Shown here one piece after another: positions 10,312-34,272 of a stretch of 64,000 nt of DNA. Within the stretch, counting starts at the first letter, position 1; the number at the start of each line of letters is the position of its first letter. A model generated the notes under the pieces. It had not been told where the DNA came from and ran no database searches. It worked only from the letters and a program-made list of their open reading frames with translations. The position numbers and the translations under genes were made by a program. The DNA is from Candidatus Latescibacterota bacterium (GTDB taxonomy: Bacteria > Latescibacterota > UBA2968 > GCA-2709665), in NCBI GenBank assembly GCA_965219455.1, contig OZ244744.1, forward strand, positions 960,001 through 1,024,000, given 5' to 3'.

Positions 10312-10945
10312 ACCTGACCGACAATACTATTTCGATACGGTTACCCTGAGCAATTTCGTCCTTTCCGGCCGCCTGAACCTGCTCATTGCCCGTTACGGTC
10401 GACGGGCATATATCACGCCGCAGGTGCTGGACGAGGTCGCCGATGGCATTGTCGCCGGCTACGCCGGCTTGCGTGAGGTCGAAACCGCTGTCACGTGCGG
10501 GAGATTAAGCGGTGTCGAACGCTTCTCTCCGGAAGAGCGCGATACCTACCGGGAACTCTTGCAGACCCTCTCCCCCGGCGAAGCCTCGTGCATAACCCTC
10601 GCGCAAACCCGCGGTGGTATCGTTGCCACGGACGACAGGGCCGCCAGGGGTTGTTGTTTCGATAGAGGTGTCGTTTTTACGGGAACTGTCGGAATCCTGA
10701 AGGCCTGTGTGCTGGATGGCACTTTGTCGCCACGGGAGGCGGACGACGTCCTGCGAGCGATGACGGCTGCCGGATATCACTCACCTGTCGGGCGCATCAG
10801 CGCACTCGTCCTGACTGCGAACCGAAGCCGCGGCGGACCGACGGTTAAGAACGGCGACGATCCCGGTAACCAGCAGGGCGGATCCCTGAATCCAGACCCG
10901 CATATTTCCGGAAGGCGTGAGAAAGAGGACGAGAGCCGCAACTAA
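10295..10945 (+). CDS. PIN-domain toxin (VapC/DUF3368-like) with a probable read-through C-terminal tail
   Basis: YFDTVTLSNF, LSPGEASCI, VATDDRAAR, GTVGIL. The last about 45 aa overlap the convergent TRAP permease gene. Confidence 0.8.
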   Translation: MPRVPEPDRQYYFDTVTLSNFVLSGRLNLLIARYGRRAYITPQVLDEVADGIVAGYAGLREVETAVTCGRLSGVERFSPEERDTYRELLQTLSPGEASCITLAQTRGGIVATDDRAARGCCFDRGVVFTGTVGILKACVLDGTLSPREADDVLRAMTAAGYHSPVGRISALVLTANRSRGGPTVKNGDDPGNQQGGSLNPDPHISGRREKEDESRN

Positions 10946-12712
10946 CAGGGCAACCCGCTGCCACGCATTGAGCGGAGCGAAGCCATGGCCGGCGATGGAG
11001 GCCGCCAGGGGAAAAATCCCCAGAAAGACAACGAGAACATTGATCAACGTGGACGACAGATCGGGCGAAACCAGAAGCAACTCGGGATGCAGAACAAAAG
11101 CATAGGGAAGGGCAAAGCCCACAAGGGCGAAACGAAATGCCGCGACGCCCGTACGCATGATATCCGCCTTTGCAATTGCGGCGGCCGTGTAGGCGGCCAG
11201 CGCCACGGGAGGCGTCACCATCGACATCATTCCGAAATAGAAGATGAACATATGCGCCGCCAGGGGCGTAACGCCCAACTCGCCCAGAACCGGGCCGACA
11301 AGGGTGGCCATCAGGAGATAGCATACCGCCGAAGGCAGGCCCATCCCAAGGGTGATGGTGGAGACCATCAGCAGAACCAGCGCCAGGACCAGATTGTTCT
11401 GCGACAGGGATAAAATGGCGCCCGGAAGCTTCGTGCCGATACCGGTAAGCGTCACCACCCCGATAATAATTCCCACACAGGAAGCGGCCGCGATCAGGGA
11501 CACACCGCCGTGAGCCGCGCTTTCCACGGCATCCAACAGCGCGCGAGGCCCCACGCGAGTCGTCCGGTACAACGCGGCCGCCAGGAGCATGCAGACCAGA
11601 GCGACGCTGACCGCCCGAAACGGCGTATAACCGATAACGATCAGCAGGATCAGGCTCACAAGAGCCGCCAGGAAGACAAGGCCCTGAGCGCCCGGCGGAC
11701 GACTCGCGGGTGCATCATCCCCAGCGGCCACCCGGATGCGCTTTGCGTAGAAGTGGACGATCAGCAGAAGCGCGGTATAGTAAAAAATGGCCGGGATGAG
11801 CGCCGCTCTGATAATCTCCAGATAGGAAACCGCCGGCTCCACCATCTCCAGCATCATATAAGCGCCGGCGCCCATTATCGGAGGCACCAGCGCCCCGCCC
11901 GAACTGGCCGCCGCCTCAATCCCCCCTGCAACCACAGGCCGGAATCCGGCCGAACGCATCATCGGGATCGTAAACGTACCCGTCGTGGCCGTGTTCGCGA
12001 CCGCACTTCCGGAAAGCGAACCCATCATCCCTGAAGAAACAACGGCAACCTTCGCGGATCCGCCCGTGCGCTGTCGAAAAAACCGGCGCGCGGCATCCAG
12101 CACGTACGCGGTCGCGCCGGTCTTATCCAGCGTCGCGCCGAACAGAACGAAGAGAAACACGTATGTGAACATCACTTTCAACGCGATGCCGAATATGCCC
12201 TGTGAATGCAGAAAGGTCTGAGAGACGATACGCTCCCAGCCATATCCCCTGTGAGGGAAAAGCCAGTCCGGCATCGCGTGGCCGAAGGCGGCGTAGGCGA
12301 GGAACGCCAGGGAGAGCAGCGGCAGGGTGACGCCGATCGCCCGGCGGGTCGCTTCGAGCACGAGAATGAGGCCGACCAGCCCGACTGTCCAATCCAGCGG
12401 ATGTTCCAGCCCCGCGCGGTTACCCAGGCTGCGGCCACCCAACCAATAGTTCCTGAAGACCGGTTCAGTCTGAACCAGCACATAGCCGAAACAAAAGAAA
12501 ACAGCCGCAACGAGGAAAAAATACAGAGTCCCTGGAGATTTCCCACCCGCGGCGCCAGGACGCACCGGGTGCTTGAGAAAAACAAGACTCAAGCCCAACA
12601 TGGAAAAAACCGCCAGTTGGGCTTGAGGCGTCAATCCTGGATAGTTGACCTCAGCCAGGACAAAAAGACTCAGCAGGGTCGCCAGGATACGAAAAAGCCA
12701 TGACTCGAGCAT
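10781..12712 (-). CDS. TRAP transporter fused 4TM/12TM permease (TAXI type)
   Basis: SGSAVAN, EAAASSGG..PPIMGAGA, LGMGLP, TPPVALAAY. Confidence 0.92.
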   Translation of the reverse strand: MLESWLFRILATLLSLFVLAEVNYPGLTPQAQLAVFSMLGLSLVFLKHPVRPGAAGGKSPGTLYFFLVAAVFFCFGYVLVQTEPVFRNYWLGGRSLGNRAGLEHPLDWTVGLVGLILVLEATRRAIGVTLPLLSLAFLAYAAFGHAMPDWLFPHRGYGWERIVSQTFLHSQGIFGIALKVMFTYVFLFVLFGATLDKTGATAYVLDAARRFFRQRTGGSAKVAVVSSGMMGSLSGSAVANTATTGTFTIPMMRSAGFRPVVAGGIEAAASSGGALVPPIMGAGAYMMLEMVEPAVSYLEIIRAALIPAIFYYTALLLIVHFYAKRIRVAAGDDAPASRPPGAQGLVFLAALVSLILLIVIGYTPFRAVSVALVCMLLAAALYRTTRVGPRALLDAVESAAHGGVSLIAAASCVGIIIGVVTLTGIGTKLPGAILSLSQNNLVLALVLLMVSTITLGMGLPSAVCYLLMATLVGPVLGELGVTPLAAHMFIFYFGMMSMVTPPVALAAYTAAAIAKADIMRTGVAAFRFALVGFALPYAFVLHPELLLVSPDLSSTLINVLVVFLGIFPLAASIAGHGFAPLNAWQRVALLVAALVLFLTPSGNMRVWIQGSALLVTGIVAVLNRRSAAASVRSQDECADAPDR

Positions 12713-12713
12713 A

Positions 12714-13712
12714 TCAGTTGGGCCAGATCCCGATTTCCCTGTAATACCTGATCGCACCGGGATGGAAGGGTGTGCCCGTATCCCGAATCACATTCCCCGG
12801 ATGGATGGCTTTGCCTGCCGGATGCTTCCTGACCACGTCCGCACGGTTCTCGTAAAGGATCCTGGTAAACCGGTAGACGGTCTCTTCGTCCAGGCTGGCA
12901 CGCGTCACCAGGTGCATCGAACCGACGTTCATACCTTCGAAGGGTTCGGTCTGACCACGATAGGTGTCCGCCGGAATATTCGCCGCGTTGAAGAAAGGAT
13001 AGGCCTGAAACAGGCGCTCTTTCTCAGAGGCTCCGAAGGGGATGAAACGGACGTCCTGAGAAGCGCTCGCCTGGGTTATGGACGCCGTGGGCACGGCGCC
13101 GCCCAGAAAGGCGGCGGCGGCAGATCCGTCCGCAAGCATGTCCACGGCCCCCGCCTGTGTATTGTGCAGCGGGCTGAAATCGTCATAGGTGACTCCGTGG
13201 GCCTCCAGGATAGGCGCAAGAAAGTACTCGAATCCGGCGCCGGCCGGACCAACGACAACCCGTTTGCCCTTGAGACCGCGGATGGCGCGGATCCCCGTTC
13301 CTTCCGGCGTCACGAAAAGGGCGACGTTCGGCGCAAGCGTCATGACGGCGTTGATCCCCTGCTCCTCACCCCAGGCTCCCGCGCCTCGTACCGCAAAATA
13401 TGAAATCGCGGCATTGGCCAGCGCGAAATCCAGTTCCCCGCGGACGAGCCGGCGGATATTTTCCTGCGTTCCCTTGGTCGCCTCCGCGGTCACGTCCCAG
13501 GACAGGTCGCCCCCGTGGTCGTCCGCGACCTGAGCGATCGCCCCGCCGACCACAAAAAAAGCGCCCCCGGGCGGAGCCGTACCCACGCTGAGGAACCGGC
13601 GCACGGGGTCGGAGGTTTTCCCGTCTTTGTCCGGGGCCTCACATCCGAACGCGCCCAGCAGGATAACGATGGTGGCGCCAACGACCCGTTTCATGCCCGC
13701 TAGCCGGTTCAT
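12714..13712 (-). CDS. TAXI-family TRAP solute-binding lipoprotein
   Basis: Lipobox AFGC, GTAPPGGAFF, ATKGTQEN, PFHPGAIRYYRE. Confidence 0.9.
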   Translation of the reverse strand: MNRLAGMKRVVGATIVILLGAFGCEAPDKDGKTSDPVRRFLSVGTAPPGGAFFVVGGAIAQVADDHGGDLSWDVTAEATKGTQENIRRLVRGELDFALANAAISYFAVRGAGAWGEEQGINAVMTLAPNVALFVTPEGTGIRAIRGLKGKRVVVGPAGAGFEYFLAPILEAHGVTYDDFSPLHNTQAGAVDMLADGSAAAAFLGGAVPTASITQASASQDVRFIPFGASEKERLFQAYPFFNAANIPADTYRGQTEPFEGMNVGSMHLVTRASLDEETVYRFTRILYENRADVVRKHPAGKAIHPGNVIRDTGTPFHPGAIRYYREIGIWPN

Positions 13713-13749
13713 CGAAACTCCTCTCTCCGTTTGGTTCCGGGTTCCTGTT

Positions 13750-15051
13750 CTATCGATCCGTACGGTCTTCCGCAATACAATAGAGGTGGCTGCGTCCTCT
13801 CAGATAGATCGCGTCGTCCACGACGACAGGGGAAGCCGCCATCCCTTCGTCCAGGGTGTTGATCGCCAGCGTCTCGAATTCCGGACTGTTCCTCACCACC
13901 AGCGTCTTGCCGTCCAGGTCGGCGATATAGATTCGATGTTTCACGCCGATCGGCGACGCGTAGATGTTGCCTATCCCTTCGAGGCGCTTTGGACCGAAAA
14001 ACGCTTCGCCCGTTTTGGCGTTGTAACACGACAAAATCGCTCGTCGATTCTTAAGAAAATAAAGCTTGTCTCCATACAACAACGGTGACGACACGTAGGG
14101 CGTATCCCGATGAATCGTCCAGAGCACCGAATCCGACGCCGAAATATCCCCCTTCGCGCGATCCAGCGATATGGCCTGCATCGCCGGGCTCCCGTGACCG
14201 CTGGTCACATAGACCACGCCATCTGCGTGCACCGGGGTCGGAATCACATTCGTCCCCAACCCGCCACATTCCCAGATCAGCGCCCCGGTCTCCAGGTCGT
14301 AGCTCCGGGTGCGCCTCGACGCGCTCACGATGACCTGTCGTTTGCCGTCGTGTTCCACCGGCAGCGGCGACGACCAGGACGTGACCTCGTCGCGCTCGTT
14401 CCGCCAGAGTTCCCTGCCCGTTTTCTTGTCCAGGGCCACGATGAACGAATCCCCTTCGTGATCCCAGTTGATCACCAGGGTATTGTCGTAGATCGCCGGC
14501 GAAGCGCCCTCGCCAAAGGCGCTCCGGCTCCAGTACTTGCCCAGGTCTTTCTCCCATTTCAAATTGCCGTTCATATCCAGACAGTACAGGCCCTGTGAAC
14601 CAAAATAGGCGTATAGATGTTCGCCATCGGTGATGCCGGAACACGAAGCGAACGAAGCCGTCCGGTGCATTCCTTCGTGGGGGTGCGCTTCACGGACCGT
14701 CTTTTCCCACACCGGTTTTCCACTCCGGCGGTCCAGCGCCAGCACCTTGTACTGAAACAGATTCGTTGGCGCCGCGCGCCCGCCGCCGCCGCCGCTCCCC
14801 GCGACTTTGTCCGTCGGCACGGCAGTCTGCACAAAAATCCGATCCCCCCAGACAATCGGGGTCGCGTGACCCAGACCGGGGATTGGCACTTTCCATCTTA
14901 TGTTCTTTTCCTCGCTCCACTCCAGGGGCGGATTTCCGCCATCGACCAGCCCATTCCCGTTCGGACCACGCCAATGCGGCCAATTTGACGCCGCCTGTTC
15001 GGTAACGAACAAAAGAAACAACACGGCTGACGCCCGGAATATCGTCTTCAT
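13750..15051 (-). CDS. Secreted PQQ-binding-like beta-propeller protein
   Basis: Signal peptide, NWPHWRGP, repeated (S/T)P motifs and LDxxTGxxxW Trp-docking repeats. Confidence 0.88.
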   Translation of the reverse strand: MKTIFRASAVLFLLFVTEQAASNWPHWRGPNGNGLVDGGNPPLEWSEEKNIRWKVPIPGLGHATPIVWGDRIFVQTAVPTDKVAGSGGGGGRAAPTNLFQYKVLALDRRSGKPVWEKTVREAHPHEGMHRTASFASCSGITDGEHLYAYFGSQGLYCLDMNGNLKWEKDLGKYWSRSAFGEGASPAIYDNTLVINWDHEGDSFIVALDKKTGRELWRNERDEVTSWSSPLPVEHDGKRQVIVSASRRTRSYDLETGALIWECGGLGTNVIPTPVHADGVVYVTSGHGSPAMQAISLDRAKGDISASDSVLWTIHRDTPYVSSPLLYGDKLYFLKNRRAILSCYNAKTGEAFFGPKRLEGIGNIYASPIGVKHRIYIADLDGKTLVVRNSPEFETLAINTLDEGMAASPVVVDDAIYLRGRSHLYCIAEDRTDR

Positions 15052-15167
15052 TCTGTGCTCCTTTCACCAGGAGTTGACGGCGTTGGCTGGATCACCGAAT
15101 CTTCGATCAAATATACGCCGCAACCGTCCGCAATCGAAATCCAATTCTCATCGAGCCTTTGCGGAAT

Positions 15168-18100
15168 TCAGGCGCCTTCCCGCTTCAAAGCGGGCAACAG
15201 CGGCGTCCTGAGCGCAACAAATATACCCACGGCGCCGGCAGCCAGGCCCGCACCGAAAATTGTGCAGAGGGTCGCCAGCAGAGAACCCCATGGCAGTTCG
15301 CCGACCGTTGAATGGGGCACGGTGGTAACAACCGCGGACACGCCGCCGATGACCATGCCCGCCGACATCAGAAATCCGTTCTCCGTAAAGAGGAGCCCGG
15401 AAAGCAATGACCTGCGAAACCCCATTGTCCGCAGCGCCGCGAGTTCAGCCCGGCGTTCCACGACGTTTCGCACCATCACGATCCCCAGACCGAACGTGCC
15501 CAGGAGCACTCCCAGCCCGCCAAGCGTCTGAAACGTGGACAGGTACGTATTCTCCACCGTCCGGAAACGGGCGAGCCTGGCCGACGTCGGCATCGCGTCG
15601 AGACCGGCGTCCTGCAGCCTCCGCTCCAGCAGGGGCCCCAGTTCCCGGGGCCGGTCGGTCTCTACCAGGAAATAGCCATACCCGCTCCGATCGGGGAAAT
15701 GTGCGGTAAAATTTCGCTCCGATACCAGCAATTCACTCTGAAAAATACTATTCTTCAGCAGTCCCACGAGCCGCAGCCTCACGATCTCACCCGTATCCGT
15801 TCGCATCGGGATTTCGTCGCCAAGTTTTTTGTGCAGGATCCAGGTCACTGAGTTTTCGTCTCCGAATGCGGGAATCACGTCCGACTCCAGGCGCCGCGTC
15901 AATAAAGTCCACGGATCTTCCACTTCATCCAGCAACCGTTCAAACAGGAATCCGCCCCGTTGAATCATTGCTTCCGGCACACCCAGAACCCGGGGATCGC
16001 GGGGCCGGTAAAGATTCAGACAACTCATGTCTTCTCCCGGCAATACACGGAAAGGCATCACCCTCGCCCGGTCCAGAATATCCGCATCCTCCCCGGAAAA
16101 CCCAAGCTCAAACCGGCCGTCTTCCGTATTGAGATCGTGATAGAGCGGCGCATCCGTCTCGGCAACAAGCTGAAACCCTCCTCCTCCCGACGTCCGGCTG
16201 CTCAACGCATCCTCTGAGAGATCGGTGCGGCGATGGGCGCCAACCGCCACAACCACAAAGCAGGCGCACGCGATCAATGATGCGCACAGCAGACTCCGCC
16301 CCGGATTTCGTGCGCTATTCCGCACGCCCATTCTCCAGATTCCCCTTGCCGTCGCGTGTCGCCTGCCGCGAAACCACGTGGAAAGCAGGCCCAGACCCGA
16401 AATCAGCAGAAACGCACCGCTTCCGAAAAACAGCGCCATCGACGCCTCGCGGCCCCCGCTGGCCGCGCCGGCGAGGCAGGCAGCGGCCAATCCCAGGCTT
16501 CCGAGGGCATATGCCCGTACCCGTCGCCCACCATCGGCGGACGCCACGTAAACGGTCCCCGACAGGAGCGCGCGTACGGGCAAGCGTCCCAATCGGCGGA
16601 CCGTCATTCGTATAGATAACAGAACCACAAGCTGTGAAACCACATAACCCGCCGCCAGACTGAACCCGCTCACATGCAAGGCGAGTTCCGTGGTTCCAAC
16701 AGCCGGGACCCACCAGGTGCGCAACCCGGCGATCATGATCCAACCGTACGCCAATCCTCCAGCAAGCCCCCCCAGGCCCCCAAGACCGGCCAGCCAGATC
16801 GCCTCACCCATAAAACGCCTTCTGATCGCCCCTGCGGTGAAACCCGACGCCATCAACACACCCACCTCGTCGGACCGCTGTTCCACGCCCAGCCGGAAGA
16901 GCAGACCCACAAGCAACGCCGCCGAAACAATCAGAAAAAGACTGAATCCACTGAACAGCCATCTGAAATCCGTCGAGCCCGAAGCAGCGGCCAGCCCATG
17001 TTCCCTCACCGGCTGAAATACCAGCCCCGCTGCTTCGGGCGAGAGCGCTTTGCGAAGCCCGGCCCGAAATCGTTCGGCGGAACGACGGATATCTTCTCCG
17101 GGCAGGGGGCCAATCCGGATGGACGTGAGATTACCGAATCGGCTCCGCCACAGACGTTGACCCGTCGCAGCCGACACGATGGCTTTGGGCGCGGCGCGGT
17201 AGGCGTCCCAATAGGCTTCGTCTACGGGCCGTATTCGCTTCAGATCCACCGGGAAGGGCGGGGCCCAGGCATGCATATCCTCCGCGTCGTGCAGGCCCGG
17301 AAATTCGGGAGTCAACAGGGAATCGGCGCCCAATCCTTCCATGGCAACGACGCCGGCAAGCCTGAATGTGACGCGCCGCGTTTTCAACGCTTCCTTCGGC
17401 CCGACTTCAAAATAAACCACGTCCACGGCGTCGCCGGTAACGGCGTGCAGGTCCTTCGCCGCCCAGGTATTCAGCAATACTTCCCCCTCGCCGGGAACCG
17501 GCGCTCCGCTCCCGTTTGCCAGTCGCAAATTCCCGACACGCCCCGCGTCCATCGCGGCAACTGTCGAATAGGGCAATGCGCGCTCCCCTACCTGGATCGT
17601 ATTGGCCAGATAGGTCAGTATCGCCAGTCTCGGCATCCTCCAACCGTCCGCCAGGCCCAGGATCGTATCCGCCAGGTGGGGTTTCAGGAAAAACTGTGTG
17701 CTTTCAACGGCGAAATAATCGGCTTCCACCCGCATCGAAAGCCCCAGATCATCCAACGTTGCGGCCCGGGAGAGCCCCGCCCCCGGACCGCCGGCATCCT
17801 GCGTCCCCTTGGAAGCCAGGAGCGTATTCACACGGGACGGCAACCCCAGCGTTTCCTGCAGTACGGGCAGCGACACAAACGCATTGAGCGGCACATCCTG
17901 TCGTGCGCGCAAACCGAAACGACCCATTCCCCGGTCGGGCAACACACCCGTGAGTCGCACACGTACGGTCTGTATCGATTCTGAAACCTCGTCCCGCCCG
18001 AACAGCGATTCCCGGTGGACGTCACCGGGCAGCTCAAATGAAAGCAGGATCGCATCGCCCACGCGCGCGTTCAGTTCTCTCCTCAGGGACTCATTGGCGA

Positions 18101-19556: not shown

Positions 19557-19661
19557 ATCGTTTCCTCTCCGGGATTCTACCGCCCTGCCGGCGGGAAGTA
19601 GTCGGGCGAAGAGGTAACGCCCTTCGCGGTCGTCCACATATTGGAGCTCACGTCGCGCGAT

Positions 19662-19715
19662 ACGGTTTTCGCCTTTTGCTTTTGGCTGACAGCTGAAGGC
19701 TGATAGCTGATAGCT
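19662..19715. repeat. Heptamer CTGANAG repeat element
   Basis: ggttttcgccttttg..ctgacagctgaaggctgatagctgatagct; its reverse complement resembles 9055-9100. Confidence 0.65.
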
Positions 19716-19741
19716 CCTCCGGCTACACGAACTGCCAGCCA

Positions 19742-26473: not shown

Positions 26474-26500
26474 CACGCGATTTCCTCTCCACATTCCAAT

Positions 26501-27721: not shown

Positions 27722-27787
27722 GCGTTCTCCTTTTCGGACCTGCACGGACCCTCCAGCGGCGCGATTGGCGTTCGTTGGTTGCGTTAC

Positions 27788-27908: not shown

Positions 27909-27949
27909 GGTTCAGTGCCCAGGCACGCTACGGATCACATAGGCCGGGT

Positions 27950-29296
27950 TCAGGTGTACCTTGAATCCCTGTAGACCTCGTGATAAAACTCCGGTAGCAA
28001 CTGGTCGACACGTAACAACCCCTCGCGACTCAACCTGACCTCCCGTGCATCGAAATCCAACATTCCGAAACCCCTCAGCCTCCCGTAGGCCTCGCTGAAC
28101 CGCTCGAGGATATTCACGCCGAATTTTTCCTTGAAATAGCCGGTCTCGATCCTTCCGAGCTTGAGTTGGAGGATCATCTCGCGAACAAGACGCTCCTCGT
28201 CGGTAGGAACAAAGGACCTGTTCAGCGGCAACCGCTCCTGCCGGCAGGCCTCGACATAGGGATCCCACTGCGTGTGGTTCTGAAAGTGTATACCGCCCAC
28301 GTGGGAAAACGACGCGACTCCCGCGCCGATCAGGTCCGCGCTGCGCCAGAGCGCGTCGCGATAGACAAACCGCTTCAATCGACCCTTCCTTACGAGCGTA
28401 TAAGCGCTCGACGTCTCGTAGCCCGCGGCCTCGAACGCGTCAATCGCATGGTCATGCCACGCACGCTTCGTCTCCCAATCGGCCACACTCAGTCTACTCC
28501 CATCCAGGATCGACCTGGAATACGTGGTATTGAACGGAAGTTCCATCTGATAGATGGTGACGCTGTCCGGGTCCAGGTCAATCGTGCCCTGCACCGTCTC
28601 CTTCCATGTCTTCCAGGTCTCGCCCACCATCCCCGAAATCAGGTCCACGTTCACCTGCGCGAATTCCTGCGACTTCACCCATCCCATGGCCTCGTAAATC
28701 TCTTTTCCGACGTGCGCGCGGCCGTTCTCTCTCAGAATCTCATCGTTCAGGTTCTCCAATCCCAGGCTCAATCGCGTTACGCCGATCTCGCGAATGGCCT
28801 CCACCTTGGGCCTGGAGAGTGTACCCGGCTCGCACTCGAACGCCACCTCTTCGGCGCCGTCCCAGGTCATTACGGCTTTCAACCGATCCACCAGCGCCTC
28901 CAGGTGTTTTACACTGATATAAGACGGCGTCCCTCCTCCAAAATAGACGAATTGCAGGCTGCGTCCGGCAATTCTGGGCAGGCCGGCGTAATATTCCACC
29001 TCTCCGGCCAACGCGTCCAGATAGACCTGGATCTCCGAACTGTTGCGATCCGTGTACACCCGGAAATAGCAGAACTTGCACCGCTTCCTGCAGAACGGGA
29101 TATGCAGGTACAGGCCAAGAGGCGCCCGCCGCGCCGACGGATCCACCGTGTGCAGCATATCCACGACCTGCGGGTTGTGCTCATCCTGCCAGAACGAATA
29201 GGGCGGATAGTTGGAAACGAACACACTGCCGACCTGTGTTTCCTTCCAGTCTTTCCTGGAGGTTGCAGGTTCCGGAACGTGAACTTGTGCGGTCAT
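27950..29296 (-). CDS. HemN-like (class C type) radical SAM enzyme
   Basis: YLHIPFCRKRCKFCYF (CxxxCxxC), YFGGGTPS, RLSLG, NVDLI and a HemN C-terminal-like region. Confidence 0.9.
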   Translation of the reverse strand: MTAQVHVPEPATSRKDWKETQVGSVFVSNYPPYSFWQDEHNPQVVDMLHTVDPSARRAPLGLYLHIPFCRKRCKFCYFRVYTDRNSSEIQVYLDALAGEVEYYAGLPRIAGRSLQFVYFGGGTPSYISVKHLEALVDRLKAVMTWDGAEEVAFECEPGTLSRPKVEAIREIGVTRLSLGLENLNDEILRENGRAHVGKEIYEAMGWVKSQEFAQVNVDLISGMVGETWKTWKETVQGTIDLDPDSVTIYQMELPFNTTYSRSILDGSRLSVADWETKRAWHDHAIDAFEAAGYETSSAYTLVRKGRLKRFVYRDALWRSADLIGAGVASFSHVGGIHFQNHTQWDPYVEACRQERLPLNRSFVPTDEERLVREMILQLKLGRIETGYFKEKFGVNILERFSEAYGRLRGFGMLDFDAREVRLSREGLLRVDQLLPEFYHEVYRDSRYT

Positions 29297-30450
29297 TTTT
29301 TCGTTTCACTCCCAAAGCAATAAAGGGTCCCGTCGGTCGTACCTATCACGAGTCTGCCGCCGGCCAAGCTGGGCGAGGCCAGGATTTCCGAGCCGGTTAC
29401 GAATTCCCACTCCTTTTCGCCGGTATTCAAATCCAACGCCAGAACCCGTCCCCCTGTTGTCCCCACAAAAACACGATTGCCCGCGACCACCGGGGAGGAA
29501 TCGATGCGAGAACGGAACGAGCGTATCCACAACAACGCGCCCGTGTCCGGATTCAGCGCACGCACCATTTTGTCCCGCCCGGCCACGATCACGCGCCTGT
29601 CGGTCACCGCTGCCGAGGCGTAGTAAGGATGCTTGCGGCTGGGATGCTCGTAACGCCACGCGACCTTCGCCGCCGACAGATCCACACCCAGGACCTGGTT
29701 TCCGAAATTACCCAGGTAGGCGCGTCCGTTGTGCACCGCGACACTCGACGCGACGTAGTCGTACACGACCACATTTGCGACTTCAACCCCATCGGCCACG
29801 TTCACCACCCGCATCAGGCCGTCGCACCCCGCGACAACCGCCCGTCCGCCCACGAGGGCCGGCGTTCCGTGGACGTATCCGCCGGTCTCCAATTTCCACA
29901 ATAACGAACCGTCCTTCGTTGCGAGGCAGTAAAGGAACTCGTCATAAGATCCGAACAACACCCGGGCCCCATCCCCCGTGGCCGAAGAAATGATCTCCCC
30001 CCCTGTCCGGAACGTCCAGATCCCTCTCCCCGTTCCCGCCTCCACGGCGTGGAACCCGCCGCCGCCATCTCCAAAAAAAACAACGCCATCGGCAACCATC
30101 GGTGACGACTTGACTTCTCCCCGGGCCGTATACGTCCACTTCAATCCGCCGCGGTCCAGATCAAATGCATAGAGCTTGCCGTCCAGCCCGCCCACATATA
30201 CCGTACCCCGCCAGATCGCCGCCGTGGACTCGATCCCCGTTGCCACCCGTGCGGTCCACGCCACCACCGGTTCACCCGGCAGCGCTCCCCGAGCAAGCCC
30301 GGTGGATTGCGCGTCGCCGCGAAACTGCGGCCAGGACGCCTCGCCGGCAACGCCGACGGGAACCGTTACGTGCAACAAGCAGAGGAAAAGAAAGACGTTC
30401 TCAATGTTCCTCGCTTGTCGCTTGACCCGAAACTCAATACGCCTCTTCAT
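29293..30450 (-). CDS. Secreted PQQ-binding-like beta-propeller protein (BamB/AfsK-like)
   Basis: SWPQFRG followed by about eight repeats (IESTA, VKSSP, IISSA, VHGTP, IDSSP, ILASP). Overlaps both neighbours. Confidence 0.88.
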   Translation of the reverse strand: MKRRIEFRVKRQARNIENVFLFLCLLHVTVPVGVAGEASWPQFRGDAQSTGLARGALPGEPVVAWTARVATGIESTAAIWRGTVYVGGLDGKLYAFDLDRGGLKWTYTARGEVKSSPMVADGVVFFGDGGGGFHAVEAGTGRGIWTFRTGGEIISSATGDGARVLFGSYDEFLYCLATKDGSLLWKLETGGYVHGTPALVGGRAVVAGCDGLMRVVNVADGVEVANVVVYDYVASSVAVHNGRAYLGNFGNQVLGVDLSAAKVAWRYEHPSRKHPYYASAAVTDRRVIVAGRDKMVRALNPDTGALLWIRSFRSRIDSSPVVAGNRVFVGTTGGRVLALDLNTGEKEWEFVTGSEILASPSLAGGRLVIGTTDGTLYCFGSETKK

Positions 30451-31549
30451 ATAACGCCAGATATCCGGCTTCGCGGACCGGCCGCGGATTGAACGTTCCC
30501 GTCCACTGGTTTGCCGCCGCCGCCGCCAGCTCCGGCAGCCGATCCCGGCCAACCCCAAGTTCACACAGGCGTCCGGGCAGATTCGCCGTGTGTCTGAATC
30601 GGACGATCTGCTCGGCAAGCGCCCCGGCCGTCAACCCAAGTCCTTCGTAGAGCGCCCCATCCGTTTCCCCGTTGAACCGGATCACCGACGGAAGCATCGT
30701 GCCCACCGCGACGCCGTGCGTGATGCCGTACCGAGCCGTCAGCGGATTGGCGCACGCGTGCGCGGCGCCCAGCATGGCATTCTCGATAGCCGCCCCTGCG
30801 AAATGCGCGCCCAGGAGCATTGCGGCCCTGGCGTGGGGGCCTGCCGGCGGCTCCAACGCCCCTTCGAATCCCGTCGAGAGCAACCGCCACGCCTCCCGCG
30901 CGTACATGCGCGACACCGCGTTGCGCCGGGTACACACGTAGCTCTCCACCGCATGCGCAATGGCATCGATACCCGAAGCGGCAGCCACATGTGTTGGAAC
31001 GCTCGACGTGAGCGCGGGATCCAGAATGACGCCGCGAAACCGTGCCTTGAGGTCTCCGCAGGCCATCTTCTCGTGGGTATCCGGCGTGGCGATCAACGCG
31101 TAGGACTGTGCCTCGCTCCCGGTTCCCGCGGTAGTGGGAATGCCGATAGACGGCAGCATCGGGCGCTCCGCCCTGCCCATTCCCCGGTAGTCTTCGATCC
31201 GCCCGCCGTTGGTGAGGATGAAATTGATCCCCTTGGCGCAATCCATCGCGCTGCCGCCCCCCAGGCCCGCAATGAGACCGATGCCGCCATGCGCCGCGGC
31301 AACCTCCACCCCCGCGTCCACGTGAGCCGTTGTGGGGTTCTCGCCCGCCCCGTGGAACAGGAAGACGTCGCGGGATCCACGCCGCAGCAACGCCATCGCC
31401 CTGTCCGCGATGCCCGCGTTGACAATTCCGGGATCGGTAACGAGCAGAGTTCGTCTTCCACCGAGTCCATCCGCCAGGTCCCCGAGTTGCGCCAGTGCGC
31501 CTTCCCCGAATATCACTCGCGGCGCAGGATGAAGGTCGAAGGGTTCCAT
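30434..31549 (-). CDS. Iron-containing alcohol dehydrogenase
   Basis: LGGGSAMDCAK, IPTTAGTGSE, GIDAIAHAVE, HACANPL..HGVA. Confidence 0.93.
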   Translation of the reverse strand: MEPFDLHPAPRVIFGEGALAQLGDLADGLGGRRTLLVTDPGIVNAGIADRAMALLRRGSRDVFLFHGAGENPTTAHVDAGVEVAAAHGGIGLIAGLGGGSAMDCAKGINFILTNGGRIEDYRGMGRAERPMLPSIGIPTTAGTGSEAQSYALIATPDTHEKMACGDLKARFRGVILDPALTSSVPTHVAAASGIDAIAHAVESYVCTRRNAVSRMYAREAWRLLSTGFEGALEPPAGPHARAAMLLGAHFAGAAIENAMLGAAHACANPLTARYGITHGVAVGTMLPSVIRFNGETDGALYEGLGLTAGALAEQIVRFRHTANLPGRLCELGVGRDRLPELAAAAANQWTGTFNPRPVREAGYLALYEEAY

Positions 31550-31559
31550 CCGAATGATT

Positions 31560-32984
31560 CTACGCTCCCCGGGCGAACTGAAAGGCCCGCTGCCGGTAGA
31601 GATGTTCGAACAAATTGCCTTCGTGAGGCTGGTCCCAGGAAATCCGGTTCGTGGGAATCGGCCCGAGGTTCAGTCTTTCCACGTGAGGTGAACTCAGCAA
31701 CTGACTGATCAAGGCTTCATCTTCCGTCAACGCGGTCACCACCAGGCTGGGCCCGATCCGGTTGTGCACCTCCGACTGCGGCACTTCGACCACGCTCGCG
31801 TACGGGAACAGGAACTCCGTATTCGCCAGCGGGTGTTCGGGAGACTCACACCACACCAGCGTGGGATTCAAAAACGTGAGGCCGTCTATTTCATCGAGCC
31901 GGTTCCGGCGCAAGTCCGCGGTCAGGTCCTTTGCGCCGCCGTTTCCCAGGTGCACGTCAATCGTATTTGAAACCTGAACCGCGGCCGCGGGATTGGCAAA
32001 CGCGGCAAGCTGCGCTTCCGGATCGTCCAGCGGCCGGGCGCCGATCTCCGCGAGCCGGCACGCGAGCGCTTCGGCAATCTCCCGACCATGCGCGGGTGTC
32101 CACACGCCCGAAGCATTGATGCACGACCGACCGCCGTTTGCAGTTATCGAAACCAGGATCACATCCAGATAATCCTCCCAGCGGTCGACCAGGTCTTCAC
32201 CAAGAATCACCTTGCTCCGGCCGGGGCCGTGAATCGACACCCGTGGATCGTTGCGCCACGGCGCAACCGTGGCCCCTCCGCCGAACAAAAGGGAGCGCCC
32301 GCACCGCAGAAGGACTTCGTTGGCGCCGGCGTGCCCGGTCGGATAGATGCCGAACGCTTCGACCGGGCATCCTGCGGCAAAAAACGCCTGTGCAATCCGA
32401 TACGGGGTCCAGGGATCCTCCCGCCCGGGCTTCAACACCAGGGGCACCTTCAATGAAATCGCCGGAACCCAGAGCGAATGCACCCCGGGGGAATTGCTGG
32501 GCAACACCGCGCCCAGCGCATCAGTCTGGCACAGATAGCTCAATGGCCGACCGCTTTCAGGGTTCCACCCCCCATCCAGAACCGACAGATCCAGGTCACG
32601 CGTCAGCCCGCCGAGCACCGCTTCAATCTGGCTGCAAACCAGCCGGATTTTTCCCATGTTCGACCGGCAAAGGGCTTCCGGAATTCCCGTTGTCCCCGAC
32701 ACCTGGCGGACATAATCCTCGGGAGATTGCGGTTCGTTATCCAGCGGCAGAACCGCATCCGAGAAAAACCGGGCAGCCCTCCGGGTTACAGTTATAAGAT
32801 CGGAAACGGTCAACGCTTCCAGGTTCCCTTTGTTCGCCGGCGCGGCGTTGAGATCCCTCGCGATCAACCCCGGATTCGCCTGGCTCACCCGGACCAGCGG
32901 TTCTCCGGTCCGGACGTGCGGAACTTCCTGAACGTCCAGACTCGTATAGGGCTTGCCTGCCCGCAGAACCGGGATATGGGCCAC
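31560..32984 (-). CDS. ALDH-fold protein, GriD/EhpG-like putative acyl-adenylate reductase subunit
   Basis: LPSNSP, LKPGREDP, catalytic Cys in GGRSCINAS, EFLFP. IHGPGRSK replaces the canonical ELGGK. GTG start after GAGGAGG. Confidence 0.8.
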   Translation of the reverse strand: MAHIPVLRAGKPYTSLDVQEVPHVRTGEPLVRVSQANPGLIARDLNAAPANKGNLEALTVSDLITVTRRAARFFSDAVLPLDNEPQSPEDYVRQVSGTTGIPEALCRSNMGKIRLVCSQIEAVLGGLTRDLDLSVLDGGWNPESGRPLSYLCQTDALGAVLPSNSPGVHSLWVPAISLKVPLVLKPGREDPWTPYRIAQAFFAAGCPVEAFGIYPTGHAGANEVLLRCGRSLLFGGGATVAPWRNDPRVSIHGPGRSKVILGEDLVDRWEDYLDVILVSITANGGRSCINASGVWTPAHGREIAEALACRLAEIGARPLDDPEAQLAAFANPAAAVQVSNTIDVHLGNGGAKDLTADLRRNRLDEIDGLTFLNPTLVWCESPEHPLANTEFLFPYASVVEVPQSEVHNRIGPSLVVTALTEDEALISQLLSSPHVERLNLGPIPTNRISWDQPHEGNLFEHLYRQRAFQFARGA

Positions 32985-33015
32985 GCCACCCTCCTCGATC
33001 ATCTATTTAGCTTGT

Positions 33016-33135
33016 ACCCTGAGCCGCTCCCTGAGCCTGTCGAAGGGTCGGCGAAGTGTCACGAAGTTCACCCAACGTTGCAGCATGGGCCCGTCGAAGG
33101 GTAGCGAAACGCGGACGCTTCGACAGGCTCGGCGC
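33016..33135. repeat. REP-like cluster (CCCTGAGCCTGTCGAAGGG family)
   Basis: ccctgagcctgtcgaaggg and gtcgaagggtagcgaaacgcgg..ttcgaca; inverted relative of 27788-27908. Confidence 0.75.
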
Positions 33136-33198
33136 AAGGAACGTAGCGAGACGGGTTGAACCGGCGGATGAATGGAGACGTAAATCCGTTTCCGGACA

Positions 33199-34272
33199 CT
33201 AATATACCCCGACGACGACCGACTCCTGCAACTCAGAGAAAAGGCCCAGATTTCGTACCCCGTCCCATGGAAACCTTTCGCTGGGTTCCGCCCGCTCTCC
33301 CTCGTCCCGTTCCAGAAACCTCGGCATGAAGAATTCTCGGGTCAGGGTTGTCAGCATCACCCTGCCAACGGCGTTGTATGCCACCGGTTCGTCAGGATTT
33401 TCGGGGTCCGCCAACTCGATAACCGCCCTGGGCACCGGCGGATAATAGGTAATGGCGTAATTGTCCGCGGGCTCCAGCGGTTTGGAATAAGCCAACCCCA
33501 TCAATGTATTTCCGTACGTCGGCACAAAATCGATACCGGGAACCAATTCCTCCCTGGCGAATCGGTTGAATTGCGCGTCCATCTCGGTCCCGCCGCAGAA
33601 AATCCCCGATATCCCGACCTTTTCCAACGAAATCTTTTCGCAGATCGCTTCGAGAAGCTTCGGGGTTGTAAACATACACTTCACATTGTCGTTCGCCCGC
33701 AAAATGGTCAGCGCCTGGTCGATCACGTGCGCTTTGTAGAGGTCCAATTCCTGGAGCGCGCCGCGCACGATCAGCTTATTCACCCACCGGGGATCCAGGT
33801 CCACCAGGAAACAGATCCCGCCGCGGATCTGGCACAGATATTCGACCGCCAGCCGCAGCCGCCTCGGTCCCGTGGGACCCAGCATCAGCCAGTCCGCCCC
33901 CGTGGGAAACGTCTCGTTTGAAAGGTGCCTGCTGAACATCTCATAGTCGATCTGGAAGTCGTCCTGGCTTATCCGGTATTTCGGCACCCCGGTGGATCCG
34001 CCGGTCTCGAAAACATACGTCCGCTTCCCTGCGCTTCCTCGGGGTATCCACCGGCGTACGGGTCCGCCTCGCAGCCAGTCGTCCTGAAAGTGTCCCAGAA
34101 TCTTCAAATCCGCAAATCCGCCGATCTCCCTTCGCGGATCGAAATCCAGCCGCTCCGCGAATTCCAGCCAGAACGGGCAGCCCGTGTCCGGATTGAAATG
34201 CCAGGCCACGGTTTCCCGCACGTGGGCATCCAGTTCGTCCCTGGCCTTCCTGACGCTATCGGCAATCGGCAT
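33199..34272 (-). CDS. Atypical short adenylating enzyme, GriC/EhpF-like (aryl-carboxylate reductase AMP subunit)
   Basis: WHFNPDTGCPFW, P-loop VFETGGSTGVPK, GPTGP, DLDPRWV, TTPKLL, YGNT, ERD. 357 aa, lacking the usual C-terminal ANL lid. Confidence 0.75.
   Translation of the reverse strand: MPIADSVRKARDELDAHVRETVAWHFNPDTGCPFWLEFAERLDFDPRREIGGFADLKILGHFQDDWLRGGPVRRWIPRGSAGKRTYVFETGGSTGVPKYRISQDDFQIDYEMFSRHLSNETFPTGADWLMLGPTGPRRLRLAVEYLCQIRGGICFLVDLDPRWVNKLIVRGALQELDLYKAHVIDQALTILRANDNVKCMFTTPKLLEAICEKISLEKVGISGIFCGGTEMDAQFNRFAREELVPGIDFVPTYGNTLMGLAYSKPLEPADNYAITYYPPVPRAVIELADPENPDEPVAYNAVGRVMLTTLTREFFMPRFLERDEGERAEPSERFPWDGVRNLGLFSELQESVVVGVY

Follow-up and report, generated by a model that had tools for sequence, protein, structure and literature searches.

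Organization of the locus

The window, i.e., the whole 64,000-nucleotide stretch of Candidatus Latescibacterota DNA that was analysed, carries 17 co-oriented genes on its minus strand between positions 10781 and 34272 (listed in gene order in Table 1). These genes, their families and their overlaps had been put forward in the original prediction, and all were confirmed by ORF, Pfam and NCBIfam checks and by letter-by-letter inspection of the junctions, which include ATGA junctions at 29293-29296 and 24359-24362 and overlaps at 30434-30450, 19116-19132/19138 and 18473-18488. The g04 propeller gene is predicted to be translationally coupled to both g03 and g05. The five remaining gaps (g01-g02, g05-g06, g09-g10, DMT-like gene-g11 and g13-g14) measure 116-206 nt, so that internal promoters are possible. 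For some genes the longest-ORF start was replaced: the g04 start lies at 30450, as had originally been assumed, while the GT4 start was set at 21596 because all orthologues align from residue 1 of that form. The DMT-like gene occupies a frame separate from that of the thioesterase.

Table 1. Predicted genes of the co-oriented set, in gene order
Gene	Position in window	Strand	Predicted product	Basis or feature
g01	33199..34272	-	EhpF/GriC-type truncated adenylate-forming enzyme	357 aa, without C-terminal ANL domain
g02	31560..33002	-	ALDH-fold reductase partner	480 aa; Pfam Aldedh 37.9 bits
g03	30434..31549	-	Iron-containing alcohol dehydrogenase (Fe-ADH)	Pfam Fe-ADH 144.6 bits, ADH_Fe_C 103.2 bits
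g04	29293..30450	-	Secreted 8-bladed BamB-like propeller	Pfam Beta-prop_ACSF4 194 bits, above cut-off
g05	27950..29296	-	HemN-like (class C-type) radical SAM enzyme	Pfam Radical_SAM and HemN_C
g06	26501..27745	-	Secreted propeller, variable member	Pfam PQQ_2 103.6 bits
g07	24359..26494	-	TonB-dependent receptor, siderophore-type subfamily, accessory member	Pfam Plug and barrel
g08	23082..24362	-	PaaK-like aryl/acyl-CoA ligase	Pfam AMP-binding_C_2
g09	21803..23062	-	Flavin-dependent halogenase	GGGPAG at residue 12, WFWYIP at residue 218
g10	20304..21596	-	GT4 glycosyltransferase	430 aa; Pfam Glycos_transf_1 and Glyco_transf_4
DMT-like	19742..20251	-	DMT-like membrane protein, five-helix, half-size	169 aa, translation
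g11	19116..19559	-	Hotdog (4HBT/YbgC-type) thioesterase	Pfam 4HBT_2 and 4HBT
g12	18473..19138	-	LolD/MacB-type ABC ATPase	Pfam ABC_tran
g13	15168..18488	-	Permease with two FtsX domains	1106 aa; Pfam FtsX (two stretches) and MacB_PCD
g14	13750..15051	-	Secreted propeller	Pfam PQQ_2 123 bits
g15	12714..13775	-	TAXI solute-binding protein	TIGR02122 245.7 bits, above cut-off
g16	10781..12757	-	Fused TRAP permease	TIGR02123 540 bits, above cut-off

While the 17-gene set itself stood, its proposed limits did not. The co-oriented run reaches upstream to 40723 and there includes genes for two GFO oxidoreductases, a PcRGLX-like protein and LarA, whose synteny is restricted to the same genus (G009; L025-L029), and two propeller genes that abut g01 upstream in other genera, here referred to as PropA and PropB, are located ~560 kb away in the present genome, outside the window. 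RNA-library contigs from three studies (90-99% identical) span nearly all of positions 14500-34400, with single contigs bridging the DMT-like gene to g06 (7.9 kb), g05 to g01 (within a 16.8-kb contig) and g14 to g13, although such contigs may include carried-over DNA and are no proof of a single transcript.

Enzymes of acid activation, tailoring and reduction

Together with g02, the g01 product is predicted to make up a two-protein carboxylic acid reductase, as its first half. A profile built from seven orthologues matches the EhpF structures 3l2k/3hgu over residues 11-344 (E = 5e-48), in agreement with the GriC-like assignment made originally, while the Pfam AMP-binding model scores below threshold. 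Among the 80 loci that were kept, g01 identity ranges from 69 to 93%, and in 54 of the 58 loci with full flanks g01 is adjoined by g02. Alignment of the latter to KauB places Cys294 at the catalytic cysteine and His258 at the position of the ALDH general-base glutamate; both residues, together with Asn170, are invariant among 22 sequences. A passage in PMC10179220 (citing Suzuki 2007) provides the GriC/GriD precedent for such a pair, by which an acid is converted to an acyl-AMP and then to an aldehyde.

The g08 ligase matches the phenylacetate-CoA ligases 4r1l, 2y4o and 2y27 in the PDB, with NCBIfam PaaK models at 232 and 196 bits and FlxY at 152 bits, none of which reaches its cut-off. The best PDB matches of g09 are all halogenases (8zop at 217 bits, PltA, CndH, Mpy16, Bmp2 and CmlS), and its Lys73 aligns with the lysine of these enzymes, so that the protein first called halogenase-like appears to be a genuine halogenase. 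The substrates of its closest relatives, PltA, CndH, Bmp2 and Mpy16, are carrier-protein-bound, and no carrier-protein gene turned up within the cluster or the inserted regions examined, which makes CoA as the handle an assumption. A flavin reductase gene is absent from the cluster by Pfam. As originally predicted, the cluster and the regions examined hold no PKS or NRPS genes, and within the cluster there is no gene for synthesis of an aromatic acid.

The g05 enzyme, with CxxxCxxC starting at residue 69, matches HemN (1olt) and the methyltransferase NocN (9p2u) in the PDB and has an orthologue (at least 65% identity) in 37 of 41 relatives. Methylation by g05 is a guess, as the NCBIfam ChuW/HutW, HemN and STM4012 models score about equally (~170-176 bits each), all below cut-off. 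The YbgC score of g11 likewise falls under its cut-off.

Conservation and co-inheritance

Synteny in other genomes, on which the original prediction hinged, was observed, the gene order being kept across two families of the order. Genes g01-g05 and g08 are present in six of six genomes from these families (g03 being syntenic in all six) and g09-g13 in five of the six fetched stretches, while the core is also found in loci whose titles name Poribacteria, Calditrichia, Acidobacteriota and Gemmatimonadota. Among 168 genomes of the phylum, g01 is found in 98 (as a single copy), g09 in 96 and g10 in 94 (with alignments starting at residue 1); the g09- and g10-positive genomes all fall within the g01-positive set and 70 genomes lack all three genes. 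Completeness of the six discordant genomes is 75-88%. Given this synteny and all-or-none phyletic pattern, the clustering is far beyond chance.

It may nevertheless be argued that unrelated operons for the reductase, halogenase, exporter and TRAP permease merely lie side by side, a reading with which the five gaps between blocks, the four clearly unrelated genus-specific upstream genes in the same run and the separation of blocks in some genomes would agree. The separated blocks are, however, kept jointly: in G022, g01 lies at 707 kb and g09/g10 at 367 kb, and unlinked modules are likewise both retained in G024, G034, G101, G130, G141 and G142 and in all five Poribacteria genomes tested. As the three modules are inherited all-or-none even when unlinked, the TAXI orthologue is confined to g01-positive genomes and the same gene set appears under five phylum labels, chance adjacency is strongly disfavoured and considered highly improbable. 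The ~17 genes are a real set that several uncultured bacterial phyla retain or lose as a whole.

The cluster had been presented as undescribed, which holds in part. A 2026 preprint (10.64898/2026.08.03.742642) describes a 'Halo_AMP' cluster class, surveyed in sponge microbiomes, with genes for a halogenase, PaaK-like ligase, PQQ-like protein, radical SAM enzyme, GT, TE, TonB and ABC proteins; 9% of its families derive from Latescibacterota, and it reportedly has no known product. Compared at the level of gene families, the present cluster matches this class, which has already been surveyed.

Proposed pathway and role of the propellers

From the protein families, conservation and all-or-none co-occurrence, which were observed directly, we infer a pathway in which the 17 genes and the two displaced propellers form one functional system that would import a small carboxylic acid (most probably of the aryl or arylacetic type), tailor it and reduce it to an alcohol that meets propellers in the envelope; we give this proposal about an even chance of being correct. 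The acid would cross the outer membrane via the TonB-dependent receptor and the inner membrane via TAXI-TRAP, or via a Na+/solute symporter in some lineages. In a putative order of steps, g08 would make the CoA thioester, g09 would place Cl or Br on the ring of the thioester-held acid, g05 would probably add a C-methyl group and g11 would free the modified acid. This release follows the same logic as the 4-chlorobenzoate pathway. The acid would then be adenylated by g01, the acyl-adenylate reduced to the aldehyde by g02, with its retained catalytic cysteine and its histidine in place of the general base, and the aldehyde converted to the alcohol by g03. Following glycosylation by g10, the DMT-like protein and the LolD/double-FtsX machine may carry the product into the envelope, where the secreted propellers would bind or transform it.

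The original prediction left open whether the acid is imported or endogenous, and the conserved importers point to the former. Importers recur with differing type and position among loci. The g07 receptor, which exceeds the TIGR01783 cut-off (250.6 versus 223.5 bits), lies inside the cluster in four of six genomes. The TAXI orthologue is found in 55 of the 168 genomes, every one of them g01-positive, including all g01-positive genomes of families f1 and f2, and is accompanied by g16 in G029, G009 and L092. TAXI/TRAP genes are present in Latescibacterota, Acidobacteria Mor1 (L092) and a Poribacteria locus (L074), while an SSF symporter lies inside the cluster in G038 and in a Calditrichia locus (L043), with 60% identity between the two. 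With two or three conserved carboxylate importer types, no precursor-synthesis gene and an acid-to-alcohol module that is the most conserved enzymatic part, the cluster might instead serve mainly to take up an external acid supplied by a host or by organic matter, for conversion or detoxification. The co-occurrence of importer and exporter would also suit a redox cycle in which the alcohol leaves the cytoplasm, is oxidised by the propellers outside it and returns as acid to be reduced again, in resemblance to the fungal chloro-anisyl alcohol cycle. Uptake of this kind is nonetheless rather unlikely as the main function: two of the six genomes have no receptor gene in the cluster, the TAXI orthologue occurs in just seven of the 49 g01-positive f4 genomes, ring-cleavage and beta-oxidation genes are absent from the cluster by Pfam and NCBIfam, and no oxidoreductase cofactor site was recognised in the modelled propellers (g04, PropB). 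Moreover, halogenase, radical SAM enzyme and glycosyltransferase are tailoring enzymes that we do not know as parts of catabolic routes.

The proposed export into the envelope rests on g12, which scores below the NCBIfam LolD cut-off (252.6 versus 307.75 bits), on g13, with eight segments in a hydrophobicity scan and two large extracytoplasmic loops (approximately residues 30-507 and 750-987), and on the DMT-like protein, which matches no Pfam family and for which the nearest ESM Atlas clusters, named DMT-superfamily permease (score 0.97), offer a lead only. LolD and MacB-type systems, the nearest to this ABC part, act on the periplasmic side. It is thus conceivable that GT4, DMT-like protein, thioesterase and LolD/double-FtsX proteins assemble a glycolipid-like component of the envelope and put it in place, with aryl chemistry as mere decoration and the propellers as periplasmic assembly or scaffold factors. 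The propeller fold is like that of BamB, an assembly factor, and no protein in the present genome reaches the BamB equivalog cut-off (best score 79 versus 285 bits). Orthologues of g04 carry an N-terminal signal peptide followed by W-x-x-F-R-G, and its AF2 model (pLDDT 90.5) has Cake8, BamB, YxaL and tetrathionate hydrolase as top Foldseek matches. With only four charged residues invariant among 31 sequences, g04 looks like a plain scaffold, a point against the proposed pathway. A glycolipid-like component is, however, a distinctly unlikely product, as Pfam and NCBIfam reveal no lipid-synthesis, acyltransferase or polyprenyl-phosphate genes in the cluster, the acid reductase, halogenase and carboxylate importers would be left unexplained, and the dense invariant charged residues of PropB suggest more than a scaffold.

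Returning to the proposed pathway, its link to the propellers, also anticipated originally, is borne out by gene position. A propeller lies within 6 kb upstream of g01 in 51 of the 58 loci with full flanks, and a same-strand PropB gene precedes g01 at 71 of the 80 loci (a PropA gene at 36), so that both displaced propellers belong to the system. Clear orthologues of g06 (at least 48% identity) and orthologues of g14, which bears WPHWRGP at residue 24 after its signal peptide, are each found in three of six genomes. First-look PQQ_2 candidates are ~3x more numerous in genomes with g01 (median 40.5 versus 12.5), and five of five within-genus contrasts agree in direction, although part of this excess is due to the four to six propellers of the cluster itself, and g01-negative families f7, f10 and f14 of the phylum are also propeller-rich (up to 48 candidates).

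These data bear on the original suggestion that the pathway makes a dedicated cofactor or prosthetic ligand for secreted propellers, as PQQ is for quinoproteins, with the importers salvaging cofactor or precursor. Five propellers being fixed or frequent members across phyla, the conservation of PropB with its many invariant charged residues in loops, the higher PQQ_2 counts, and a very high conservation between phyla and all-or-none inheritance more like those of cofactor pathways than of strain-specific natural products would all fit such a role. Direct support was not obtained, and we judge it unlikely, since BamB, YxaL and designed propellers head the matches of each modelled propeller, with PQQ or lanthanide dehydrogenases appearing only from rank 37 onward for PropB and not among the matches listed for g04. 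In addition, g04 has few invariant charged residues, and genome G000, with just 11 propeller ORFs of which five are system members, holds no large orphan family to be served. We also know of no cofactor pathway that features glycosylation and a MacB-type exporter. A PqqC search returned no match in the genome, and likewise none in control genomes.

Within the proposed acid-to-alcohol system, PropB is the best candidate for binding or converting the product. It retains 57-77% identity across phylum labels, and 132 of its 475 positions are invariant, 30 of these being D/E/H/R/K, of which 24 lie outside strands; His, Asp and Glu abound among its invariant residues, and its motifs include DPEHGEG and VDEGH.

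Gene content, boundaries and expression of the cluster

The original prediction described a novel biosynthetic or cofactor cluster serving orphan PQQ-like propellers, and the observation at its base is confirmed: the 17 genes and the families named for them were recovered by open reading frame (ORF), Pfam and NCBIfam analysis, and the enzymes of the system are of known kinds, brought together in a set that is uncharacterised and widely conserved. The genes are numbered here from the 34272 end of the cluster (g01-g16, plus a small DMT-like gene) and all are located on the minus strand (see table). The gene junctions quoted at the outset are exact, i.e., ATGA at 29293-29296 and 24359-24362 and overlaps at 30434-30450, 19116-19132/38 and 18473-18488, while g08 and g09 are spaced by 19 nt and the five intergenic gaps left in the cluster measure 116-206 nt each. 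Longest-ORF starts were trimmed for three genes, and the DMT-like gene was found to occupy its own frame, separate from that of the thioesterase.

Genes of the cluster and associated features (window positions unless otherwise indicated)
Feature	Order	Strand	Coordinates	Assignment
Cluster		minus	10781-34272	17 genes
g01	1st	minus		EhpF/GriC-like truncated adenylating enzyme
g02	2nd	minus		ALDH-fold protein
g03	3rd	minus		Fe-ADH
g04	4th	minus	trimmed start 30450	secreted propeller
g05	5th	minus		HemN-like radical SAM enzyme
g06	6th	minus		second propeller
g07	7th	minus		TonB-dependent receptor, siderophore-type
g08	8th	minus		PaaK-like ligase
g09	9th	minus		flavin-dependent halogenase
g10	10th	minus	trimmed start 21596	GT4 glycosyltransferase
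DMT-like gene	11th	minus		five-helix membrane protein, 169 aa
g11	12th	minus	trimmed start 19559	hotdog thioesterase
g12	13th	minus		LolD-like ATPase
g13	14th	minus		double-FtsX permease, 1106 aa
g14	15th	minus		third propeller
g15, g16	16th, 17th	minus		TAXI-TRAP pair
Upstream block			34292-40723	four genes co-oriented with the cluster
PropA, PropB			genome positions 1,552,677-1,556,436	displaced secreted propellers, 757 and 475 aa
Sigma-70-like pairs			40708-40902	facing pairs
Low-G+C islands			46000-50000, 52000-56000	may be foreign DNA

The co-oriented run extends upstream of g01, beyond the cluster, through four genes that encode two GFO/IDH/MocA oxidoreductases, a PcRGLX-like three-domain protein with a GH127-like part, and a LarA-like protein. 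Only within the same genus (genome G009 and loci L025-L029) are they found next to the cluster, and the block is not located at the cluster flank in the five more distant genomes from which stretches were fetched. In most other genomes two propeller genes lie directly upstream of g01; their orthologues in the genome holding the window (G000), designated PropA and PropB, are situated ~560 kb away, and both carry signal peptides. With PropA and PropB counted in, the system comprises at least 19 genes in G000, 17 of which are within the window. The upstream block occupies the place of the PropA/PropB pair of other genera, and resembles an insertion or rearrangement, specific to the genus, by which the system was split. 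Elsewhere in the window, two islands of low G+C content (0.485-0.52 versus ~0.60) carry ORFs without a Pfam family, a Uma2-type putative restriction endonuclease, an RDD-family protein and a periplasmic binding protein. Apparent g01-g02 and g08-g09 fusions in one genus (frames of 833-862 aa) were rejected, since the partner genes are in different reading frames; the long frames represent chance open frames in GC-rich DNA.

DNA of the stretch or of close relatives is present in runs of several studies. RNA-library contigs from three studies, one of which is labelled as a sponge metagenome, cover nearly all of 14500-34400 at 90-99% identity, and single contigs span the DMT-like gene to g06 (7.9 kb), g05 to g01 and beyond (within a 16.8-kb contig), and g14-g13. 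These contigs are compatible with long transcripts, though DNA carry-over is possible and they are no proof of a single transcript; equally, lack of RNA-contig cover for parts of the cluster in single runs is no evidence of silence. Promoter scans of 10400-41200 gave counts not above those of shuffles (3 versus 5.4 and 6 versus 3.8), as did terminator scans of the same region (23 versus 20.3 and 7 versus 13.4), and no site of either kind was placed in the intergenic gaps. Near-consensus sigma-70-like pairs are confined, in this region, to the divergent intergenic space between LarA and GT2, where they point towards one another and match the consensus at 10 and 11 of 12 positions.

Conservation and inheritance of the gene set

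Synteny in other genomes, which the original prediction requires, was observed in stretches fetched from six genomes of two families: g01-g05 and g08 occur in the same order in all six, and g09-g13 are found with the cluster in five, being located elsewhere in the genome of G022. The remaining genes are more variable, the cluster containing the TonB receptor in four of the six genomes, g06 and g14 in three each, and the TAXI-TRAP pair in two. An orthologue of g05 at 65% identity or above was detected in 37 of 41 relatives.

A scan with one genome per species returned at least 561 stretches with g01 relatives. The best 80 of these exhibit 69-93% identity and are labelled Poribacteria (54), Latescibacterota (16), Gemmatimonadota/-aceae (3), Calditrichia (2) and Acidobacteriota (2), with three lacking a label; the closest loci listed (g01 at 91-93% identity, same flanking genes) are metagenome bins labelled Latescibacterota or Gemmatimonadota. 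Among the 58 loci with full 10-kb flanks, outside of which the later cluster genes mostly fall, g01 is followed by its ALDH-fold partner g02 in 54 (as in 6/6 fetched genomes), by g03 in 33, by g04 in 29 and by g05 in 26, and is preceded by a same-strand propeller in 51. A quick g01 tree largely tracks the phylum labels, with deep nodes that are unresolved, and is silent for or against cross-phylum horizontal transfer. In this tree the g01 of the window's genus (family f1) pairs with that of the f2 genus g6 (support 99) rather than with other f1 genera, a hint of either transfer inside the order or disagreement with the taxonomy.

Across the phylum, g01 is present as a single copy in 98 of 168 genomes, the halogenase g09 in 96 and the glycosyltransferase g10 in 94, the latter two exclusively in g01-positive genomes, while all three are missing from 70 genomes. 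Six genomes break the pattern (G100 and G147; G082, G085, G119 and G123), and these are 75-88% complete. Presence is patchy even inside genera (2/3 genomes in each of genera g10, g8 and g17). As related genomes are non-independent, this phyletic pattern is given as counts without a statistical test. That the genes are merely juxtaposed, a reading to be set beside their variable linkage, is hardly credible in our estimation, and co-occurrence persists where the modules are unlinked: g01 is located at 707 kb and g09/g10 at 367 kb in G022, the modules lie at 1.01 and 2.97 Mb in G024 and at 2.29 and 3.88 Mb in G034, and they are likewise distant yet co-retained in G101, G130, G141 and G142. Furthermore, five Poribacteria genomes with only g01-g02 at the g01 locus all encode the radical SAM enzyme and halogenase together elsewhere (61-62% identity). 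The TAXI orthologue is found in 55 of the 168 genomes, all of them g01-positive and often megabases off the cluster, including every g01-positive genome of f1 and f2 and only seven of f4. In several large, mostly uncultured phyla, dominant sponge symbionts included, the set displays unusually high sequence conservation and loss only as a whole; a trait of this sort has importance for the cell beyond a strain-level curiosity.

Predicted chemistry and transport

EhpF and EhpG constitute a two-protein, ATP/NAD(P)H-dependent aryl acid reductase in the D-alanylgriseoluteic acid phenazine pathway of Pantoea agglomerans. Like EhpF (~360 aa), g01 (357 aa) is without the C-terminal ANL subdomain, and a profile of seven g01 orthologues gave a near-full-length match to the EhpF structures 3l2k/3hgu (E = 5e-48, residues 11-344 against chain 18-353), so that g01 displays both features of the EhpF/GriC type. 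An adenylating enzyme followed by an ALDH-fold partner is also the arrangement of GriC/GriD of the Streptomyces griseus grixazone pathway, in which, according to the text of PMC10179220, GriD generates the aldehyde by reducing the acyl-AMP that GriC supplies. In g02, Cys294 aligned with the catalytic Cys of KauB (6b4r) and is invariant in 22 sequences, as is Asn170; the general-base Glu of hydrolytic ALDHs is replaced by His258, also invariant in the 22 sequences, which would favour a reductase, thioester-reducing role. By analogy, g01 and g02 are a candidate two-protein ATP/NAD(P)H-dependent aryl carboxylate reductase that would convert an acid to an aldehyde. In contrast to both known pairs, g01 forms an orthogroup of its own and is found in a context of propellers, importers and an exporter. 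Its family has 1475 members at E <= 0.001 in a library of 1.84 billion representatives, in which identity exceeds 60% for one full-length representative, falls to 41-44% for those that follow and is 31-38% for the rest; with few members and so steep a drop in identity, g01 is regarded as a tight orthogroup in a small family. For EhpF/EhpG, the relevant papers retrieved all concerned phenazines of enterobacteria, and Pfam and NCBIfam detected neither phenazine nor 3,4-AHBA genes in the cluster. A role for the pair would be the first for an EhpF/GriC-type two-protein acid reductase outside actinomycete or enterobacterial pigments or antibiotics.

Judged from its sequence, g09 is a genuine halogenase. 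It contains GGGPAG at residue 12 (GxGxxG) and WFWYIP at residue 218 (WxWxIP), its Lys73 aligned with the lysine of 8zop, PltA and CndH, and its best structural-database matches are solved halogenases of the PltA/CndH/Bmp2/Mpy16/CmlS branch (168-217 bits). Unlike the equivalogs of that branch, g09 scores under every NCBIfam equivalog cut-off (CmlS, 212.7 bits versus 900) and has no carrier protein or flavin reductase gene nearby; the cluster and the inserted regions of the related genomes G038 and G029 yielded neither of these, nor a precursor-synthesis gene. The radical SAM enzyme g05 carries CRKRCKFC from residue 69 (CxxxCxxC) and a Radical_SAM domain (Pfam, 70.5 bits), and is counted as class C with a HemN_C score of 23.4 bits, just below the cut-off of 24. 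It thereby shares its core and HemN_C domain with HemN, ChuW/HutW and NocN-type methyltransferases, and matches the structures of HemN (1olt) and the methyltransferase NocN (9p2u). However, it is equidistant from ChuW/HutW, HemN and STM4012 (~170-176 bits, all below cut-off; ChuW/HutW 175.7/400, HemN 174.7/324.95, with HemW at 152.4/205.4), and no tetrapyrrole or thiopeptide context surrounds it. Similarly, g08 matches PaaK structures strongly (193 bits) but misses the PaaK equivalog cut-offs (NF041878, 232 bits versus 700; TIGR02155, 196.5 versus 646), and is consequently termed PaaK-like rather than PaaK. In the 4-chlorobenzoate pathway, a CoA ligase, ring chemistry on the thioester and 4-hydroxybenzoyl-CoA thioesterase act together. 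A parallel drawn from family names is seen in the cluster, where a ring-modifying enzyme is encoded between a PaaK-like ligase and a hotdog thioesterase of the 4HBT family, although the ring step would here add a halogen, not remove one.

The presence of halogenase g09 and AMP-binding g08 in one cluster places the system in the Halo_AMP pseudoclass, a grouping of 840 sponge-microbiome clusters that, by definition, combine an FADH2-dependent halogenase with an AMP-binding enzyme (Loureiro et al., bioRxiv 10.64898/2026.08.03.742642, 2026). According to the text of that preprint, such clusters frequently contain PQQ-like domains and radical SAM, GT, TE, TonB and ABC genes, and have no MIBiG match and no products. 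Halo_AMP is a survey category, and the preprint's text (10.64898/2026.08.03.742642) includes neither the EhpF/ALDH reductase pair ('aldehyde' occurs zero times) nor any mention of all-or-none inheritance or a PropA/PropB pair; its figures or supplementary tables may already show the present architecture. Apart from this preprint, literature searches yielded no paper naming the operon; a hopanoid preprint (PMC12324291) proved irrelevant to it. Loureiro et al. further state in their text that for most small brominated sponge alkaloids no biosynthetic origin is yet known, and with a genuine halogenase in symbiont lineages, the cluster is a concrete candidate for that origin.

The best-supported reading of these enzymes is a biosynthetic logic, which we hold to be about equally likely to be right or wrong. 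An aryl-type acid would be imported and, as its CoA thioester, modified by the halogenase and radical SAM enzyme; the modified acid would be released, then reduced to the aldehyde and alcohol; after glycosylation the product would be transferred to the envelope, to be handled there by the propellers.

The transport genes are in keeping with substances crossing the envelope in both directions. The g15-g16 pair was identified as TAXI-TRAP (TIGR02122, 245.7 bits versus 84.35; TIGR02123, 540 versus 320.65), and g07, with plug and barrel, belongs to the siderophore-receptor subfamily (TIGR01783, 250.6 bits versus 223.5). The G038 cluster contains a Na+/solute symporter (L013:15082-16764), with 60% identity to a symporter of the Calditrichia locus L043 that adjoins a GT4 gene and a TonB receptor gene and has a partial copy in L104, while no orthologue was found in G000. 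The use of different carboxylate importers in different lineages points to an extracytoplasmic source of the substrate or of a recycled product. Such importers would suit a salvage or redox cycle as well as the biosynthetic logic, and a cycle of this kind, rather unlikely in our view, is favoured by the absence of a precursor-synthesis gene from the cluster and disfavoured by the halogenase. For export, g12 and g13 resemble MacB/LolCDE/YbbAP-type (type VII) ABC systems in having a LolD-like ATPase and FtsX domains with a MacB periplasmic core domain, but differ from these systems in that both FtsX domains of g13 are carried on one permease of 1106 aa (LolCE score 18.9 bits, negligible), and the cluster holds no adaptor or outer-membrane partner gene for them. 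The GT4 gene and this exporter are also what a role in envelope glycoconjugates would employ; beside the acid reductase pair and the halogenase, that role is distinctly improbable. ESM Atlas names for the small membrane protein, as for the PropA C-terminus, serve as leads only. An inserted gene of the carboxymuconolactone-decarboxylase family was also observed in the G038 cluster (L013:12717-13733).

The secreted propellers

PropB is 67-77% identical to the gene upstream of g01 in G015, G017, G022, G029 and G038, and PropA is 52-72% identical in four of these five genomes; in the best 80 of the at least 561 g01 loci, PropB lies upstream of g01 on the same strand in 71, and PropA upstream in 36. 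Structure prediction returned a clean eight-bladed propeller for g04 (AF2 pLDDT 90.5; best folds, the designed Cake8, BamB, YxaL and tetrathionate hydrolase), while the PropB model (pLDDT 82.5) matched BamB first, with PQQ or lanthanide alcohol dehydrogenases from rank 37. Only 43 positions of g04 are invariant in 31 sequences, four of these being D/E/H/R/K, compared with 132 of 475 positions of PropB in 25 sequences, of which 30 are D/E/H/R/K, 24 of them outside strands; the invariant motifs of PropB include DPEHGEG and VDEGH. With few invariant charged residues and a clean BamB-like fold model, g04 looks like a scaffold, whereas the many invariant charged residues outside strands make PropB look like an enzyme or specific binder.

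Both proteins are similar in fold, size and export to BamB (YfgL) and YxaL, which are cofactor-free eight-bladed propellers. They are distinguished from BamB by the presence of five propeller paralogues per system, by the large, conserved, charged-rich insertions of PropB, by the leaders of g04, g06 and g14, which by eye are of signal-peptidase-I type with no clear lipobox, and by equivalog scores (best TIGR03300 match among the propellers, 137 bits for g04, versus a cut-off of 285.2). No BamB equivalog above the NCBIfam cut-off was found genome-wide in G000, the best being a 733-aa frame at 3,276,509 (79 bits). A biochemical role, once established, could be the first for secreted BamB-like propellers annotated merely as "PQQ-like".

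The proposal that the product acts as a cofactor for the propellers is a live minority view that we rate as quite unlikely. The expectation that propeller counts would follow the core genes held in so far as g01-positive genomes show an excess, in five of five within-genus contrasts and with a median of 40.5 PQQ_2 first-look candidates per genome against 12.5 in those lacking g01, but part of this excess consists of the cluster's own genes, and families f7, f10 and f14 possess many PQQ_2 propellers without the cluster. On these two grounds the excess was rejected as proof of a cofactor link. In G000 there are only 11 propeller ORFs, five of which belong to the system. The quinoprotein model TIGR03075 scored 29-75 bits versus 480 for g04, g06, g14, PropA and PropB, and the top Foldseek matches of g04 and PropB are BamB, YxaL and designed propellers, not PQQ enzymes. 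A search for PqqC carries no weight either way, with no match in G000 or in the control genomes.

The most far-reaching version of the proposal, which we consider improbable, is a periplasmic small-molecule system of a new kind, analogous to PQQ and its quinoproteins, in which a halogenated, methylated molecule of the benzyl-alcohol type would be synthesised by the cell, exported and taken up again. The molecule would be a dedicated cofactor or redox co-substrate for PropB and its partners, its recycling would be completed by the TRAP/SSF importers together with the ATP-driven acid reductase, and the system would be widespread and previously unseen in Latescibacterota, Poribacteria, Acidobacteriota and allied phyla. 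Should the propellers use the product, the cluster would represent a cofactor or shuttle system of the envelope of a new type.

Two further propeller forms were observed. In Calditrichia, the propeller directly upstream of g01 (L043:7670-9862 and L101:7548-9734; ~730 aa) has N-terminal ankyrin repeats. In G000, propeller ORFs at C1:3108738-3110294 and 3113540-3115255 (locus L107) lie 5 kb apart and have identical g06 phmmer scores (227.7 bits), which indicates that they are probable recent duplicates.
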